From Dictyostelium discoideum (taxonomy: Eukaryota), in assembly GCA_000004695.1 (NCBI GenBank), contig CM000155.2:3200001-3264000 (forward strand): a DNA stretch of 64,000 bases. The letters are read 5' to 3'. The notes beneath the pieces are model-generated. The model did no database searches, was not told the origin of the DNA, and worked only from the letters and a program-made list of their open reading frames with translations. How positions within the stretch are numbered: the first letter of the stretch is position 1; each line of letters begins with the position of its first letter. Shown in pieces: positions 8,092 to 39,889 of the stretch. The translations under genes and the position numbers were made by a program.

Positions 8092-8861
8092 ACAGAAAGG
8101 TCCTTTACCAATAATTTTTATTCTTTTTATTTAAATATTTTAATGGTGGATGTTGTGGCTCAAATACAAATATAATTAAACTTGACATCAAAATTAGTCG
8201 TCTTCATCATCATATATGTTGTTAATTTACTCAAATCAAGAAATAAAATAATTATTTTTTATTATTTTTATTTTAAAGATATTAATCAATATTTAATTTC
8301 TTTTTTTATTTGGGTTTTTTTTTTACTTTTTATTTTATTTTATTTATTTTTTAAAGATCTAATTTTTTTTTTTTTTTTTTTTTTCGTTAACGAATAATCA
8401 AAAAAAAAAAAAAAATTAATTTATTATAAAATAAAAATAAAAAAATTAAAAAAATATAAATTTCCATCATTAAAAAACAAAATCTGTGTTTAAATTAATT
8501 TTAAAAATTTTATTTTTTTTTTTAATAAAATTAAATAACTATAAATATAAAATTTTTAATTCAAATTTTCACAAAAAAAAAAAAAAATAATAAATAAATA
8601 TATAATAATCAAATAAATAAAATGACAGAAGTAAGGAAATATCTTGTTAGAAAGGTACCTACAAACAAATCTATTCAGACAAGACAAATGCCAGATAGTG
8701 ATTACAGTTCTCCAGCATTTTATTTATCAGAGGGTTACCCATGTAAAGAGTGGCTTAGAGATAGATTCTACACAGTATTAGTTATAGAATTAAGAGGATT
8801 GAATTATCAAAGAACTCATTTGTCAAAATTCGCAAAAGAGTGTTTGTTAACAAGCAATCAA

Positions 8862-9118
8862 CGATGCATATGAACTACACCCAATCCCAGCATTAGCACC
8901 ATTCATACAGAACTGCATCTGGTTCAGCTCTGAGTTCTATGAAGTTTAATGGGTAAAGACTATCTTCAGTAACTAATTTAACGACGTGAAGTTTTAAAAA
9001 ATTTGGACGATGTATACGAACTACACCCAATCATGTCATTAAATTAATTACTTAAGAGAGTCTTTACCCATTTAACTTCATTAAACTCAGAGCTGAACCA
9101 GATGCAGCACCAGCTGTA
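8862..9118. repeat. Compound repeat: a 25-bp direct repeat (8862..8886 and 9019..9043), each followed by the same ~50-bp segment in opposite orientation (8911..8961 vs 9070..9118)
   Basis: cgatgcatatgaactacacccaatc / cgatgtatacgaactacacccaatc. gaactgcatctggttcagctctgag...tttaatgggtaaagact versus its reverse complement agtctttacccatttaac...ctcagagctgaaccagatgcag. The surrounding 8620..9213 is GC-richer than normal for this genome. Confidence 0.7.
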
Positions 9119-9378: not shown

Positions 9379-10400
9379 TTATTTTACATTATTAACTAAA
9401 GAACCTAATTCTTCAATTTCACATTTGATAACATCACCACTCTTTAAAAAGATTGGATTAGGTTTTCTAATGAAACCAACACCTGAAGGGGTACCAGTGA
9501 AAATGATATCACCAGGATTTAAAGTGAATAATTTTGAAAGATAAGAAACTACAGTTTGAATATTGAAAATGAATTCTTTGGTTGTAGAATTTTGAACTAC
9601 TTGACCATTGAGAGTACATTTGATTGAGAGATTATTCGGGTCGAAATAAGTATCATCAGATAATGCAGCGACTTCAGGATTGATAACTATTGATGGACCA
9701 ATTGGGGCGAATGTATCAAAAGTCTTACCAAGTAACCATTGTGAGTTATTCTTACGTAGTTGCCAATCTCTAGCGGATACATCATTACCAACGGTATAGC
9801 CTGCAACATATTGTAATGCATCAGATTCTGATACGTTCTTTGCTTGTTTACCAATCACCACCACTAATTCAACCTCATAGTCTACTTCATCACTTTCGAC
9901 TGGTTTAATGATTGAGTCGTTTGGACCACAAATTGCATTGTCAAACTTTGAGAATACAATTGGTTCTTTCGGAATTGCCATCTTTGCTTCATTTGCATGC
10001 TCTTTATAATTTAAACCAATACAAATAATCTTACCTGGTTCAATTGGTGCTTTAATTTTACAATTTTCAATTGGTATTCTTCTATTATTAATATTATTAA
10101 TTACCTAAATAATAAAAATAATAATAATAATTATAAATGTTAATAAAATAAAATAAAAAATAAAAAAAAAAAAAGAAAAGAATTAATAATTTTGACATAG
10201 GTTCATACATTTATAACTTTTGACCATTTATCAGTTGAATTTAAAGATAAAAATGAACGCATATCATTTGGTATGCTTTTATCAGCTGAACATAAATCTA
10301 TAATACTATTTTCTAATAATGCACCTAACCTTTTACTTTGTTCACCAACATTTGGTATATAAGTGACTAATTTAATTAATCCAAAATTTGCTCTATTCAT
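9379..10400 (-). CDS. Fumarylacetoacetate hydrolase (FAH) domain protein, FAHD1/2-like, 2 exons
   Basis: Exons approx 10400..10209 and 10104..9379 (donor GTATGA, acceptor TTTAG). Product MNRANFGLIKLVTYIPNVGEQSKRLG...KWSKVIN|VINNINNRRIPIENCKIKAPIEPGKIICIGLNYKEHANEAKMAIPKEPIVFSKF...GTPSGVGFIRKPNPIFLKSGDVIKCEIEELG. The KIICIGLNYKEHA segment matches the FAHD consensus KIVCVGRNYADHA. Confidence 0.8.
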
Positions 10401-31700: not shown

Positions 31701-32745
31701 ATTATTACCAACAGTTAGTCCAATACCAACTAATCCACCACAAAAATGTCAAGGTAATCCAGAATGTGGTGGACCAAATCAAGGTACTTGTAAAGATGGT
31801 GGATGTGTTTGTTTTTCACCATTCATCGGTTTAACTTGTACTTCACAAGTGATAGTTGTTCCACCACCAACTATTAACACTACTGATCCTTCAACTGAAG
31901 TTACAATACCACCACCAAATAATGAAAATATTATATTTAAATCATTAATATCACTAGTATCATTAAGAGAATTAGATTTTAATGGAAAAGAAATTCAAGT
32001 ATTCAATTTTGAAAAATGGATTTATACACCACTTGGTAATAATAAATATTTATATGAAACATCAATTTCAAATGAAATAACTACAAATATCATTACAACA
32101 ATAGAATGGTTTAATAGTAGTGAAATTATTGAATTTGCAAATCAAAAACTTGAAATGAATCCATCATCAGTTAAATACACTATTGAAATTAGTAAATACT
32201 CATTTAAATCATCATTAAATACATTACAATTAGTAATGTCTGCTAAATTAACTAGTAATACTCAAGATGATGATATTTGTTCATCAAAGCAATTTGGTAA
32301 TACAACCAATGGTGATGATTCAAATTTCTTAAAGATTCAAGTTGATAATTATTCAGTATATGGTAGATTTATTAAACGTGCTATTATAGATGAAAAAGTA
32401 CAATCAATTGAAAATTTACAATTAGATCAATCAATGAATCCAATCTCAAAATCATATTCAACTCAAAGTTTTATTGGTATTACAATTCCACAATATTTAA
32501 ATTCTCTTATAATCGATCCTGATTTTTCAATATTAGTCGATCAAAAAGCTGCATCAACTAATTCTGAAAATTCAATTTGTTCAAATAATAATAATTCCTC
32601 TTCTTTATCAGGTGGTCAAATCGCTGGTATTGTTATTGGTAGTGTTGCTTTCTTAGCTGTTTTAATCACTTGTGTCATTTATTATTTTCATAAAAAAAAA
32701 GAGAGTCTATTATTAAAAAAATCTTTCAATTTGAAAAATAATTAA
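27956..32745 (+). CDS. Large type I cell-surface glycoprotein: signal peptide, EGF-like Cys module, Thr/Pro-rich mucin-like linker, one C-terminal TM helix. 6 exons; all 5 introns are phase 1
   Basis: Exons approx 27956..28325, 28429..28707, 28838..29164, 29271..29963, 30049..30429 and 30512..32745. Every junction uses GTAAGT/GTATGT/GTATTT donors and AG acceptors, and reading frames check out across all of them. Signal peptide MKYKIRLLIFYVFSLFCFVNC. Linker and EGF-like module PTNSPTETPTPTTTTTPTPTPTTS...CQGNPECGGPNQGTCKDGGCVCFSPFIGLTCTS. TM helix IAGIVIGSVAFLAVLITCVIYYF followed by HKKK. Confidence 0.75.
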
Positions 32746-32779
32746 AAAGTTGTAATATTTATGGAAATCTTTTTTCTAA

Positions 32780-32837
<58 letters not shown>

Positions 32838-33470
32838 CTGAAATAATAAATAAATATTTATTTGAAAATTTTTTTTTTACAAGTGGTTATATAAACAAAT
32901 TAATTTTGGTGTGGTAAACACAAAATAAAAATAAATTTAAATTAAATAATAAAAACACCATAAAAACAGTGTTATTTTTTATTTATTTTAAAATAAATTT
33001 ATGTGATTCTTTTTTTTTAATCCAGCAAAACGTCAACGGAGGTATCTCAATCAATCACTATTTTCTAAATATTAATTTTTTATTATTAAACCATTATATT
33101 GAATTAATTAGAATAAAAAAATAAAATAAAAAAATAAAATAAAAAATAAAATAAAATGATAAAAAAAAAAAAAAAAAAAAAGAAATTAAACAAAAATTAA
33201 AGAAAATTATTTCGAAATTGTTTTAAACAATCATACAGTTTAAAATTAAATAAATTGTTTTAAACCACCACTTTTTTAAAACATATGAAAATAAATAAGA
33301 AATAATAATAAAAAGATAAAAAAAGAATTTTTTTTTTTTTTTTTAATATTATATATTCTTGTTGTCAGTATTGTTACTATAATTAATCCCATGGGTTTTT
33401 TATTATTATTATTTTTAATTCTTTTATATTTGAGATTATTATTAATTAAATAACTTTAAGTTTTTTTTTA

Positions 33471-33680
33471 TTTTTCTATGCACAAAATTACCATATTAAT
33501 TTCGGCAGCCATATTAATTTCAGCCTAAAATAGTTTATCTGTTCTTGACAAAATTAATATGGCTGCTGAAATTAATATGGTAATTTTGGGCATAGAAAAA
33601 TAAAAAAAACTATCAGACATAAGTCCCATGCCAAAATTATCATATTAATTTCAGCAGCCATATTAATTTTGGCATGGGAC
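33471..33680. repeat. Two tandem, sequence-related hairpins: IR 33471..33520 / 33551..33600 (about 50-bp arms, 2 mismatches) and IR 33623..33639 / 33664..33680. The loop of the second hairpin carries the 28-nt core motif of the first hairpin's arm
   Basis: caaaattaccatattaatttcggcagccatattaattt versus aaattaatatggctgctgaaattaatatggtaattttg. gtcccatgccaaaatta...tcatattaatttcagcagccatattaat...taattttggcatgggac. Confidence 0.8.
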
Positions 33681-34621
33681 ATATATTAAATATGATTTTT
33701 TTTTAGATCATATAAAATAAAAAAAAGTATATAAAAAAAAAAAAAAAAAAAAAAAAAAACTTTTTGTTTAAACACTAAATGATCATTAGTTTTTTAAATA
33801 TTTATTCTATTAAATAATAAACTGGTTATATACTATCAAATTTTTTTTTTTTAACGATACATAAATAATAAATAACTATAATATCAAATAAAAAAAATTT
33901 AATGATGCATTGGGTAATATCGAAAAAAATTTAAACAAAGATGCATTGAATTGGGAAGAAAAATTAACTATTAGTGATTCAGATAGTAGTGACAGTGATC
34001 CAGATACACCAATACAGGGACTTATACCAGAAAATTAACCAAAAACCACAAAAACAGTTAAACCAGTTGCAAATTAATAAACAAATAAATAAAAAAAAAA
34101 TAAATAAATAAATAAATAAAATAAAAAAAAAAAAAAAAATAAAAAAAATACAAATAACATACTAATAAATATTATTTAACGAAGTTACTATCTCTTCCAC
34201 AAAATATAAACGTAGATTTGAAAATTTCAATGAAAATGATGGTTGCTTAAAAGAGTTAATAGAAAAAGAAATTATAATTCAAAAAAATAGAAAGATTAAT
34301 TTATTGGATATTGAATTCAAACAGTATTTTAAAATACCCTGATAAATAATTAGGATACATAAATACATTTAAGCCTAAGGAAATAAATAGAAGGTAGTTT
34401 GGTCAGTGGATGAAATAATAGAACAAGAAATTAAAAATATTATGACCAATTATAATAAAAAATGATTTTTAAATAAAAAATTAAAATAAACTAACTATTT
34501 AAAGTTTGTATTTTTATTTGTAGCTTTTTTTTGAATTGGATAACGCAATTATTAGTTGCTTCTCCTTGAGATGCTAGATCTTATTTTATTTGTAGTTTTT
34601 TACAGATAAAAGAGGGGTTAG

Positions 34622-34982: not shown

Positions 34983-35026
34983 TTTGTAGCCAAATTGATG
35001 TAAATTTTTAAAATTTCATCAAAAAT

Positions 35027-35099
35027 GCCTGGATGGCTCAGTAGGCAGAGCGAGCGGCTGTTAACCGCTAGGTCCATGGTTCGATCCCATGTCTAGGCG
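35027..35099 (+). tRNA. tRNA-Asn (anticodon GUU)
   Basis: Cloverleaf folded by hand. Acceptor stem GCCTGGA/TCTAGGC (one G-U pair). D-stem GCTC/GAGC. Anticodon stem AGCGG/CCGCT with loop CTGTTAA, giving GTT at positions 34-36. T-stem CATGG/CCATG with loop TTCGATC. Discriminator G. Total 73 nt. Confidence 0.9.
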
Positions 35100-35130
35100 A
35101 TACTTTTCTATGAGAATAGAATTAGATCGC

Positions 35131-35365: not shown

Positions 35366-36304
35366 CTAATTATAACGATTTGCATGACCATAACCTTTAT
35401 TATGACCAGCAGTAAAAGTTTTTAAAGTATAAATATACTTTTTTAAATGTGAATGATTTGGATATTGTTGTTCAAGTTTAGTTGAATATTTGTCTACTTT
35501 AATAATATATTTATTTAATAGACCAACACAATATTTTAAAGCTAAGTCAATTGAACCAAGTTGAATTGCTCTAACTTTAACAAAGTTTGTTAATAAAATT
35601 TCATTGATTTCCATTTTGAATGAACCACAATCATTGATCATTAAATTACAAAGTTCAAAATATTTAAAGAATTTTTTGAAATTTTTTGATTCTCTAATTT
35701 CATTCTCAACATATAAAGTTGAAGTACAAGAGGAAGCAGTAATTGTCATACCGAAATCACCATGTCTTGAATTGAAATAATCTTCAATGGAAAGTGATGA
35801 ATTTAATGATTTATATTTATTGGTTTTAATGGCACTTCTACTCCAATATTCAAAATCTCTAATTAATAAATCAACAGATTCTTTAACACCAACTCTATAG
35901 TATTCATCAAATAATCTCCAAATTTCACGACCAAATGGATCATGACTCTTACTTGATCTATCCATTAAATTATCCACATAATCCTCTTCATAATTACGTG
36001 ATTCATATATGTAATCATCTAAAATGAAAAGAAAATCCAACAATTTTGAATTTACCATATATTCATCCTTTTCACCCAATGGAAAATTCAAAGCAGCAAT
36101 TTTACCAATTTCATTCTTTTTTACATAATTCACAGCATTTTCATAGTTTTGAAAAAATTGTTTAACATATTCCATTTCTTGATTTTCAAAATCTTTATCA
36201 AATGGACTACTTTTAAAATCCCAAGGAAGAGTATACTTTGGAATTCTAATTTCTTGATCCAAAAATTGATTTTTATCCCAAGTAAATTTTATATCATAAT
36301 CCAT
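35366..36304 (-). CDS. Class I terpene synthase (microbial-type TPS), single exon, 312 aa
   Basis: Aspartate-rich motif FILDDYIYE (DDxx(x)D/E) and NSE/DTE motif NDCGSFKME (NDxxSxxxE) at the canonical spacing, about 140 residues apart. All-helical composition and size fit the Dictyostelium DdTPS family. Confidence 0.75.
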   Translation of the reverse strand: MDYDIKFTWDKNQFLDQEIRIPKYTLPWDFKSSPFDKDFENQEMEYVKQFFQNYENAVNYVKKNEIGKIAALNFPLGEKDEYMVNSKLLDFLFILDDYIYESRNYEEDYVDNLMDRSSKSHDPFGREIWRLFDEYYRVGVKESVDLLIRDFEYWSRSAIKTNKYKSLNSSLSIEDYFNSRHGDFGMTITASSCTSTLYVENEIRESKNFKKFFKYFELCNLMINDCGSFKMEINEILLTNFVKVRAIQLGSIDLALKYCVGLLNKYIIKVDKYSTKLEQQYPNHSHLKKYIYTLKTFTAGHNKGYGHANRYN

Positions 36305-36527
36305 TTTTTTAAATTTTTTTTTTTTTTTTTTTAATAATTTTTATTTATGATTCAAAATTTTGGAAATATTTGATCAATTTAAATATAAAAAAAAAATGAT
36401 AAAAAAAAAAAAAAATAATAAAAAAAAAAAAAAAATAATAATTAAAAAAAAAAATTATTCTCTTAATTTGGAAATAAAAACAGTTTGATCCCTAATTTAT
36501 TATAAAAAATTTAAAATAAACTAAAAT

Positions 36528-36696
36528 ATATTCAAACTTTTTAATATTTGTTCAACTGATGAAGATAAACTTCTTTGTTAACTACATCAGTAGAACAAAT
36601 ATTAAAAAGTTTGAATATTATTTAATTTATTTTAAATTAATATTCAAACTTTTTAATATTTGTTCAACTGATGTAGTTAACAAAGAAGATAAAATT
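36528..36696. repeat. ~170-bp compound palindrome in the TPS/P450 bidirectional promoter. Arrangement: A1(36528..36561) - B(36562..36584) - A1 inverted (36585..36618) - spacer - A2 direct (36640..36673) - B inverted (36674..36696)
   Basis: A = atattcaaactttttaatatttgttcaactgatg. B = aagataaacttctttgttaacta. The inverted copies have 1-2 mismatches. Lies between the TPS ATG (36304, minus) and the P450 ATG (36989, plus). Confidence 0.85.
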
Positions 36697-36909
36697 AATT
36701 AATTGAATGTTTTTATTTTGGAAATGGTCTTTTTATCCACGTAATAAACTGTTAATTAAAAAATAACAATCAGATTATAAAAAAAAAAAAATTATATTTT
36801 TAACAGATTTACCCTCAAAATATCAAAGGGGTTTTTTTTTTTTTAATTTTCCAAAAAAAAAAAAAAAAAAAAAAAAAACCAGTTGTGTTTTTTTAGGGCT
36901 TTATAAAAA

Positions 36910-36945
<36 letters not shown>

Positions 36946-36988
36946 TATATTAATTTTTTTTTTTTTGGAATGATATAATTTAAAGAAA

Positions 36989-38571
36989 ATGATTTTATTA
37001 ACACTTTTATATTTAATTATTTTTTATATTATAATAGATTTTATAAAAAAAAATTATAAAACAAAAAATCAATTACCATCACCATTAGGAATTGCATTAC
37101 CAATTATTGGTCATTTACATTTATTACGTACCGATCCATATAAAACATTAGCTAAAGCATCGAAAAAAACAGAACATGGTATTTTAAAATGTTGGAATGG
37201 TGAGCATTTAATGGTTGTAGTTGATAATCCATCAATAATTAAACAAATGTATGTAAATACAAATAATTTTACAGATAGACCACAAACCAAAGTATTTGAA
37301 ATCATTTCAAGAAATTATAAAAATAGTGGTTTTGCAAATGGTGAAAAATGGAAACATCTCAGAGGTTTATATGCACCAAGTTTTACAAAAATTAAATCAA
37401 GACCACATGAAAATATAATTTTAAAATATGTAAATTTTGAAATTAAATCTTTAAAAAATCATGCAATTACAAATTCAATTGTAAGTTTGACCCCCCCCCC
37501 CCTTTTTTTTATTTATTTTTAAATTTTAATTAATAAATCATTATTAACTTTTTCTTTTTTATTTTCTATTAATAATAAAATAAATAGTATAATCCATTTT
37601 TAATTGAAAATATTAATTCATTTGGTACAAAAGTTATTACAGAAATTATATTTGGTAGAGAGTTTAGTGAAAATGAAGTTTACTCATTAATTGGACCAAT
37701 GAATAAATTATTTGGTATATTGGATACACCATTTCCATCAGAGAGTATATCATTTTTAAAACCATTTTATAGAAGATCTTATAAAGAATGTGATAAACAA
37801 TGTGAAGAATTATTTAAATTGGTTGAAAAAGTTTATGATGATCATTTATTGAATCTAGACAAAGACAACCCAAAAGATGTAATGGATGTAATGATTGTTG
37901 AAACTGATTTCAAAGAAAAGGATCATGTAATTTGTATATGTTGTGATTTATTAATGGGTACAAAAGATACATTCAATACAATTGTTTTATGGTTTTTTGT
38001 ATTAATGATAAATTATCAAGATGTGCAATTGAAGGGATATCAAGAGATAATCAAGGTTTTGGAATGCACAGGTCGAGATCATGTAACAATTGAAGATATC
38101 GATAAATTACCATACATTGATGGAATTATTAAAGAAATCTCAAGAATTCATCCAGCAGGTCCTTTATCAGTACCAAGAACTGCAATCAATGATATAATGA
38201 TCAATGGTTATTTCATTCCAAAAGGTTGTCATGTTTTTCAAAATACTTATGGTGCAGTTTATAATTATATGAAAGAATCTGATGAACCTTGTAAAATGAA
38301 ACCAGAAAGATGGATTGAAAATGAAAAATTAAGAAAAGATGGTAAATTAGACCCAACTAATGATTTAGCATTGATTTCATTACCTTTTTCAAGCGGAATT
38401 AGAAATTGTCCTGGTGTTGGTTTTGCAGAGTATGAATTATTCTTATTATTTTCAAATATCATTTTAAATTTTCATTTATCAAGTCCAAATAATCTAAAAC
38501 TCAATGAAAGTGGTCATTTTGGTCTTACAATGAAACCATTTCCATTTTTAGTTGATTTAAAATTAAGATAA
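36989..38571 (+). CDS. Cytochrome P450 monooxygenase, 2 exons, about 492 aa
   Basis: Exons approx 36989..37480 and 37588..38571 (donor GTAAGT, phase 0). N-terminal membrane anchor, then the P450 Pro-rich hinge LPSPLGIALPIIGHLHLL. K-helix ExxR region EISRIHP. Heme-binding loop FSSGIRNCPGVGFAEYELF (FxxGxRxCxG). Confidence 0.85.
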
Positions 38572-38980: not shown

Positions 38981-39230
38981 ATGTCACAAAATGAATATGA
39001 CAAAAGTAATTCACTTTTAAATATATTTTCAATAAAAAAAATAACGTTAGAGAATGAAACTCTACTAAATTCAAAGATACCATGGGAAATAATTAAGAAT
39101 GGTAATGTTATTGATTTAGGTTGTGGTAATGGATGGTTTTGTAGAGAAATGATTGAAAAAGGTGTAAACCAAATTATTGGTGTTGACATTTCTGAAAAAT
39201 TAATTAAAAAAGCAATAGAATTAAATAAAG

Positions 39231-39279
<49 letters not shown>

Positions 39280-39460
39280 AAAATTAAAATATTATGTCAC
39301 TGATTTAGATAATTTCCAACTTAATGAAACTCCTTTTAATTCATTAATTGGTTCATTTGATTTTGCATTTAGTTCATTTGTAACTCATTATCTATCAGAT
39401 TTAGAATCATATTTTAAAAAAGTTTACAATTTATTAAAATCAAATAATAATAATAATAAT

Positions 39461-39530
<70 letters not shown>

Positions 39531-39889
39531 GAGGTAGTAGTTTTATATTTTTAGCAGAACATCCAATGAGAACTTCAACAAAATGTATTGAAAATAAATT
39601 TATAAATCATAAATTTGAAGGTGATGAAAATTCAAAAATGGTTTGGCCAATTTCAGATTATAGTGAAGAAGGTAAAAGAGTAACTAATTGGGCTGGATCA
39701 AGTGGAATTATTAAATATCATTATACAATTGAAACTTATGTAAACACTTTAATTAAAGTAGGTTTTAAAATTGATTATCTAGGTGAATTAAATCTTGTAG
39801 AAAGACAATTACAATTTAGTAATTCTGGTGATATATCTATAGAAGCAAATAGACCATTTACACTATTTATTAAAGTGTCAAAAAATTAA
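38981..39889 (+). CDS. Class I SAM-dependent methyltransferase, paralog 1 (302 aa), with two in-frame poly-Asn insertions
   Basis: Motif I VIDLGCGNGWFCREMIEKGVNQIIGVDISEKLIKKA (DxGxGxG plus acidic residue at the end of beta2). About 85-90% identical to the ORF at 41196..41987 apart from the (AAT)n insertions [19 protein letters not shown] and [35 protein letters not shown]. Confidence 0.75.

Follow-up and report, generated by a model that had tools for sequence, protein, structure and literature searches.

The TPS8-P450 gene pair and the repeats in its spacer

The window, that is, the whole stretch of 64 kb of DNA that was analysed, has a GC content of ~20% and contains a terpene synthase gene and a cytochrome P450 gene in head-to-head orientation. 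The terpene synthase was exactly the sequence of UniProt Q54BE5 / XP_629084.1 from Dictyostelium discoideum AX4 and matched the Pfam family Terpene_syn_C_2 (E = 1.5e-12). The P450 gave Pfam p450 matches at profile positions 4-137 and 182-458, and a P450 of 491 aa was called at the corresponding place in the AX4-like assembly L001. The two genes are as follows.

35366-36304, minus strand: DdTPS8 (terpene synthase 8, TPS8_DICDI), single exon, ORF of 312 aa.
36989-38571, plus strand: CYP521A1 (cytochrome P450), coding blocks 36989-~37500 and ~37600-38571, separated by an intron.

These genes constitute the discodiene cluster, which has been described from chromosome 6 as a head-to-head pair separated by 685 bp, and are co-expressed in AX4 with a maximum at 16 h of development (PMC6524965). 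The published expression and knockout/phenotype data for the DdTPS8-CYP521A1 cluster were all obtained with AX4. In the window, the two start codons were separated by 684 nt (36305-36988). A compound palindrome had been placed in this bidirectional spacer by the sequence-only reading, and it was indeed located inside 36305-36988 between the divergent start codons, centrally in the shared spacer, at 204 nt from the ATG of TPS8 and 282 nt from that of the P450. The greater complexity attributed to it relative to the surrounding poly(A)/poly(T) DNA was also confirmed, the GC content being 13-21% in the palindrome versus 6-10% in the flanking A/T runs.

Module A (ATATTCAAACTTTTTAATATTTGTTCAACTGATG, 34 nt) was present twice in direct and once in inverted orientation, as had been claimed, in the order direct-inverted-direct and with 0-1 mismatch. 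When up to 3 mismatches were allowed, the 64 kb contained no match to module A other than these three sites; none occurred in 100 shuffles either, and none is expected by chance. A second module had been described as 23 nt occurring once in each orientation. This description was correct for 15 nt, designated B' (TAGTTAACAAAGAAG), which were exact at 36674-36688 (+) and 36570-36584 (-), whereas the remaining 8 nt proved to be a direct repeat. The repeats ran slightly past the coordinates 36528-36696 that had been assigned to the palindrome, and two pairs of inverted arms were recognized, 36508-36568/36578-36638 (61 nt, 90%) and 36551-36623/36635-36707 (73 nt, 88%). The segments are, in order:

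36507-36527, plus strand: segment L (AAATTTAAAATAAACTAAAAT), the original direct leader copy, inside the inverted arm 36508-36568.
36528-36561, plus strand: module A copy 1 (direct), exact match.
36562-36569, plus strand: junction patch AAGATAAA, repeating 36686-36693 (boundary of B' and the right flank) in direct orientation; direct-repeat family D9.
36570-36584, minus strand: inverted copy of module B', exact match.
36585-36618, minus strand: module A copy 2 (inverted), 1 mismatch, at 36592, within the CAACTG core.
36619-36639, minus strand: inverted L copy, forming the spacer or loop that separates copies 2 and 3.
36640-36673, plus strand: module A copy 3 (direct), exact match, continuous with the ancestral right flank.
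36674-36701, plus strand: direct B' (36674-36688) running into a strongly conserved block, AACAAAGAAGATAAAATTAATTA (36679-36701).

In AX4, A occurs three times, the second time inverted, L twice (direct and inverted), and B' twice (inverted and direct). L and the reverse-complemented 36619-36639 agreed at 17 of 21 positions, and relative to copy 3, 12 nt (TAGTTAACAAAG) were absent from copy 1. Because the independent AX4-like assembly L001 has the same structure base for base, an assembly artefact was ruled out.

The orthologous spacer in other lineages and its regulatory content

The TPS8 protein cluster comprised six variants, and the DNA around each of them was compared. The copy states at the orthologous spacer were as follows.

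L001, GCA_054883475.1: 99.6% identical to the window over 6.9 kb; three A-B' copies, base for base.
L003, GCA_054859355.1, D. discoideum: one A-B' copy.
L004, GCA_054859385.1, D. discoideum: one A-B' copy.
L002, GCA_054859205.1, 'D. cf. discoideum': one A-B' copy.
L005, GCA_054859235.1, 'D. cf. discoideum', the most divergent: no A-B' copy.

The TPS8-P450 spacer thus appeared in three different architectures in five lineages. In L002, L003, and L004, the whole spacer was colinear with the window, which had ~107-112 extra columns exactly at the repeat, and the single copy of these strains was aligned to copy 1 together with the flank of B'. The position expected for A-B' was occupied in L005 by an A run. 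TPS8 was intact in L002-L005, and the reading frame of the P450 was intact in three of these four. Short contigs of Logan carrying a TPS8 variant (L006-L009) ended 2-34 nt upstream of the ATG at an A run, before the palindrome. Since one copy was found in three lineages and none in the most divergent one, the 112-bp insertion is taken to be derived in the AX4 form.

Several other differences between the strains were observed. In L004, the frame of P450 exon 1 (~2300-2370) shifts after approximately codon 21 within an A run (MILLTFLYLIIFYIIIDFIKKL*, frame 0 to frame 1), and the annotated product is 465 aa versus 491 aa; this may be a real inactivating indel or a homopolymer assembly error. The spacer of L005 is 2150 nt long and contains an ~800-bp element with terminal inverted repeats (TIRs) and an ~120-bp segmental duplication (~1010-1110 and ~2450-2570). 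The element (1566-2361) has 86-nt TIRs whose arms, 1566-1651 and 2276-2361, are 95% complementary, and it has the appearance of a genuine mobile element that inserted into the same promoter; its TIR sequence was not present in the 64-kb window. Between the window and L001, base differences were seen at ~36845-36880 (TTTTCC versus TTTAC, and ACC versus AAC), together with different homopolymer lengths at the T run 36907-36945. L001 agreed with L002 and L003 at the first substitution and with L004, the only other alignable strain, at the second, and these base differences may be errors of the older reference or private changes of AX4.

The conservation of the spacer was examined among the same lineages. 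Five complex blocks were conserved at a level of at least 11/12, at 36369-36389, 36460-36492, 36679-36701 (AACAAAGAAGATAAAATTAATTA), 36743-36785, and 36816-36831, and 23 of the 34 positions of module A were invariant among the lineages having it. A contains CAACTG, and the flank of B' contains AGATAA, which we take to resemble core sites of the Myb type and the GATA type, respectively. AACTG/CAGTT was found in the spacer at 36481, 36554, 36666, 36747, and 36880, within conserved complex blocks, and three positions were conserved in L002-L004. The 572-nt single-copy spacer had four occurrences of AACTG versus 0.37 expected from shuffles, the motif having been picked post hoc, and this recurrence may serve only as a lead for a Myb-type site.

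A shared cis-regulatory role had been suggested for the palindrome. The part of this suggestion that stood was that the copied unit is a block of complex sequence with moderate conservation; the palindromic arrangement itself was absent from the spacers of L002-L005. Since four lineages with the TPS8-P450 pair lack it, the palindrome does not belong to the conserved features of this bidirectional promoter, and to judge from this distribution, the palindromic arrangement itself would not be what co-regulates the two genes. As the copied unit is a conserved promoter block, AX4 nevertheless has extra copies of candidate binding sites, namely two extra block copies, one of them with the CAACTG core intact, plus one AGATAA motif. 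L005 has both genes without A or B', indicating that the block is dispensable across the species complex. The effect on expression in AX4 would most likely be nil or quantitative.

The triplication could also be a functional regulatory mutation, in which the tripled block, or a cruciform or source of hairpin RNA, would alter the level or timing of the discodiene cluster in AX4 compared with wild strains. We regard this as unlikely. If true, the published expression and phenotype data of the cluster would describe a derived promoter allele, and the locus would be a rare small-scale example of '4-before-1' template switching.

It is very unlikely that the palindrome is a dedicated bidirectional cis-regulatory element, with opposed, paired sites for a dimeric factor that would co-regulate DdTPS8 and CYP521A1. 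The central position in the shared 684-nt spacer, the co-expression of both genes in AX4 with the peak at 16 h (PMC6524965), and the partial conservation of a copied unit with CAACTG and AGATAA cores and an excess of the post hoc motif AACTG would all agree with such an element. Nevertheless, the arrangement was missing in four of the five other lineages having the same gene pair, L005 retaining both genes without any A or B'. Moreover, the arms of 50-70 nt are much longer than a dimer site, and the sole mismatch of the inverted copy (36592) destroys the CAACTG core. Better candidates for regulatory regions are the lineage-conserved blocks 36460-36492, 36679-36701, 36743-36785, and 36816-36831.

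Direction of change and hairpin potential

The number of differences from AX4 per 939 nt of the TPS8 coding sequence was 0 for L001, 19-20 for L003 and L004, 30 for L002, and 59 for L005, and L003 and L004 differed from each other at 7 positions. These values gave the tree (((AX4, L001), (L003, L004)), L002), L005. When the copy numbers of 3/1/1/0 were placed on this tree, the simplest reading was a gain on the AX4 branch, the direction of change being inferred from five lineages. Furthermore, within AX4 the differences were 0/34 between copies 1 and 3 and 1/49 between copies 2 and 3, whereas module A of AX4 differed from the orthologous A at 4/34 positions in L004 and 6/34 in L002. The near identity of the AX4 copies and the larger differences of the orthologues indicate that the copies postdate the splits of the lineages.

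A palindrome flanked by 34-nt direct repeats is deletion-prone, and repeated loss may have occurred. The triplication would then be ancestral, and in the one-copy strains, recombination between the 34-nt direct repeats, or slippage between them, would have removed two copies; a deletion from copy 1 to copy 3 would indeed yield exactly the one-copy form, and palindromes are unstable. This would, however, need at least two independent identical losses (on the L002 branch and on the L003/L004 branch) in addition to the state of L005, and it conflicts with the near identity of the AX4 copies versus the difference of 12-18% between orthologous copies. We consider an ancestral triplication very unlikely.

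The folding of the region was predicted for AX4 and for the single-copy forms. As single-stranded DNA, the AX4 region gave -55.5 kcal/mol (z = -12.0 versus shuffled sequence), and as RNA, -75.3 kcal/mol (z = -13.8 versus shuffled), the dominant predicted fold being a stem of ~55 bp in which copy 2 is paired with copy 3. The inferred single-copy form, designated X, is the window minus 36562-36673. The single-copy forms showed nothing unusual against shuffles, with z = +0.5 for the reconstructed X, -0.15 for L004, and -0.17 for L002. Because z was about 0 for these forms, the hairpin potential is wholly a product of the rearrangement. By these predictions, AX4 gained a near-perfect ~55-bp hairpin, or cruciform-capable palindrome, as a by-product of the rearrangement.

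Such a hairpin could in principle be a young miRNA gene, whose ~55-bp stem would be transcribed and diced. The RNA is predicted to fold into a stable hairpin, most known miRNA loci of D. discoideum are intergenic hairpins (PMC6161686), and template switching is documented as a source of new miRNA hairpins (bioRxiv 10.1101/2023.04.19.537475). This possibility nevertheless appears highly improbable: no Rfam family exceeded its threshold (best 35.3 bits versus a gathering score of 74), and the stem is far longer and more perfect than those of typical miRNA precursors. Rfam matches at a permissive threshold were rejected as generic similarity of AT-rich hairpins to plant MIR families, far under the gathering scores. 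None of six module substrings was present in the supplementary miRNA tables of PMC6161686.

The palindrome had alternatively been proposed to be a tiny inserted foldback element. AX4 indeed has an extra 112 bp with a foldback structure; the DNA, however, was copied from the resident site. As the insert is a copy of resident sequence and the sites of the relatives are not empty, a local rearrangement is indicated rather than transposition. Although extra DNA in one lineage that is AT-rich, has long inverted repeats and no ORF, and weakly matches plant MIR families below the Rfam threshold, and also the presence of a real TIR-bearing element in the same spacer of L005, are what might be expected of a MITE or foldback transposable element that had landed between TPS8 and the P450, this reading is hardly tenable, since the relatives carry one resident copy instead of an empty site and the ends of the insertion have neither TIRs nor a short target-site duplication, the sole flanking repeat being the 34-nt module. 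MIR1120/1122 precursors are MITE-derived. No other copies of the modules were found in the 64-kb window, a search of little power, or in the other loci that were compared; JGI metagenome contigs had 0 matches to the conserved core AAACTTTTTAAWATTTGTYMAACTGAT, a result uninformative on copy number. MITEs and foldback elements such as thug-S of D. discoideum (PMC6161686) resemble the AX4 insert in being short, non-coding, AT-rich, and hairpin-forming with long inverted repeats. Unlike them, the AX4 insert has no dispersed copies in the available sequence, is derived from its own site, and lacks a target-site duplication.

Proposed origin of the palindrome and its surroundings

We consider, with a probability of about 0.8, that the compound palindrome arose as a structural mutation, derived in the AX4 (NC4-type) laboratory lineage of D. 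discoideum, in which a local segment of ~70 bp was copied and flipped. All novel sequence of the 112-bp insertion was templated from the adjacent single-copy form. A model joining X as far as A inclusive, AAGATAAA, the 70-nt L+A+B' of X in reverse complement, and X from the start of A reproduced 36440-36760 (321 nt) with five substitutions (36592, 36619, 36620, 36625, and 36639) and no indel. The junction patch AAGATAAA was required as such in this reconstruction. By local alignment, 65 of the 69 positions of the reverse-complemented inverted segment (part of L, A, and B') were identical to the inferred single-copy form.

The ancestral spacer would have contained one L-A-B' copy of ~70 bp, which the 112-bp templated insertion would have converted to L-A-(AAGATAAA)-B'inv-Ainv-Linv-A-B'. 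Such a product would most likely represent a miniature duplication-inverted triplication-duplication formed by replication template switching. The nascent strand would quit its template near the A/B' boundary, copy ~70 nt of the complementary strand backwards, and then rejoin its first template where A begins. At the A/B' boundary of the single-copy form lies a small quasi-palindrome, TTGTTCAACT-GATGT-AGTTAACAA (36548-36557 with 36675-36683), which is a plausible stalling or switch site; the 12 nt lost from copy 1 (TAGTTAACAAAG) are the second arm of this quasi-palindrome. A switch pivot at the GTTAAC palindrome in B' was ruled out, as the inverted copy continues 7 nt past it.

[quoted passage not shown] Three routes by template switching may be envisaged. 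The event could be a small example of the break-induced-replication type that lies behind large inverted triplications. In a two-step route, a 3-1-4-2 switch would put an inverted L-A-B' between L and A and would be followed by a 42-nt direct duplication. Otherwise, a perfect L-A-B'-ATAAA-B'inv-Ainv-Linv-A-B' product would have been formed first, with a later loss of the 12 nt (TAGTTAACAAAG) beside the hairpin loop. The inverted copy differed from its source at 5 of 70 positions, versus 0 of 34 for the direct copies, and this excess hints that there were two events, that synthesis was error-prone, or that the copies were homogenised later. Inspection of the junctions revealed no clear microhomology at either, and a 9-bp quasi-palindrome at the A/B' boundary. 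Because the leader is AT-only and diverged (4/21), the junctions, junction 2 included, cannot be placed to the base. Neither these differences nor the junctions, with their lack of clear microhomology, choose among the three routes.

Comparable rearrangements have been described. Iterative template switches give inverted triplications (PMC11293582), and the DUP-TRP/INV-DUP structures (PMC11293582; PMC4352052) share with AX4 the order and orientation of the segments: the centre is triplicated, its middle copy being inverted, the flanking segments are present twice, one of them inverted, two junctions lie in cis, and all material is templated from the locus. Unlike those structures, the AX4 case spans ~100 bp instead of kilobases to megabases and involves no gene dosage, and its junction 1 has no pre-existing pair of long inverted repeats but just the nearby 9-bp quasi-palindrome. 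Short template switches can make hairpins in one step (PMC5453318; PMC8794818). As in these mutations (Loytynoja and Goldman 2017, PMC5453318; PMC8794818), an adjacent reverse-complement copy was inserted in AX4 with a hairpin formed de novo, the change being visible as a lineage-specific cluster or insertion when close relatives are aligned. The AX4 case differs from them in its long fragment (~70 nt), in the 8-nt patch at junction 1, which needs an extra slip, and in the one-step order 3-4-1-2, in which the return precedes the departure and a 34-nt direct duplication is added. The 4-before-1 classes were unseen among short human-chimpanzee events, as the return needs the new duplex to be reopened (PMC5453318).

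In yeast promoters, expansion of inverted repeats via template switching is frequent and can alter expression, and at GRE2 it raised expression (PMC13100816). The GRE2 promoter and the AX4 spacer have in common a lineage-specific growth of inverted repeats in a promoter, overlapping candidate factor-binding sequence (PMC13100816). They differ in that imperfect arms were homogenised and extended in yeast, whereas AX4 shows a wholesale copy of an essentially non-palindromic segment.

The palindrome is accordingly read here as a young rearrangement of the template-switch type and neither as a device coupling the two genes nor as a transposon. This kind of mutation, a template-switch inverted triplication making a promoter hairpin, is already known, and the AX4 instance is new. 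It offers a base-resolved case in which a long hairpin and extra copies of a promoter block would have arisen from non-palindromic DNA in one or two steps. On this reading, work on the cluster in AX4 concerns a derived promoter, and wild relatives supply one-copy and zero-copy alleles, so that the promoter of a biosynthetic cluster that has already been characterised comes with a natural allelic series of 0, 1, and 3 copies.

The TPS8-P450 palindrome was not unique in the window, where complex palindromes of this size also occurred elsewhere. A second direct-inverted-direct triple, of the 30-nt CCATATTAATTTCAGCAGCCATATTAATTT, was found at 33491-33520 (+), 33551-33580 (-), and 33640-33669 (+), with 0-1 mismatch, where chance would be expected to give none. 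This triple occupies ORF-free DNA ~1.7 kb past the TPS8 stop, the third copy being within a small hairpin. No homologue of window 32744-34200 was found at the orthologous position of the L003 strain (L010). An inverted repeat at 8913-8989/9031-9107 has 77-nt arms that are 90% complementary, a 41-nt spacer, and comparatively GC-rich, complex sequence. This palindrome (8913-9107) is situated between an 83-aa ORF (8622-8873) and the ORF 9379-9981 (-), which by eye looks like a fumarylacetoacetate-hydrolase gene. The high structural turnover of the noncoding DNA around the cluster fits a mutational rather than a designed origin of the palindrome.

A tRNA-Asn(GTT) gene is located at 35026-35100 (+), 266 nt past the TPS8 stop (ARAGORN; Rfam, 64 bits). 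It was conserved in L001-L004 and not found in the flank of L005. The DNA 5' of this tRNA gene varied between strains in content and called ORFs, which is presumably the pattern to be expected from the tRNA-targeted retroelements of Dictyostelium. On the other side of the pair, ~410 nt downstream of CYP521A1 and on the same strand, lies a gene for a class I SAM-dependent methyltransferase (38981-39889, +; Pfam Methyltransf_23/11/25) with long poly-Asn tracts, and a gene of ~300 aa (300-309 aa) was found at this position in L001-L004 and in L010/L011.
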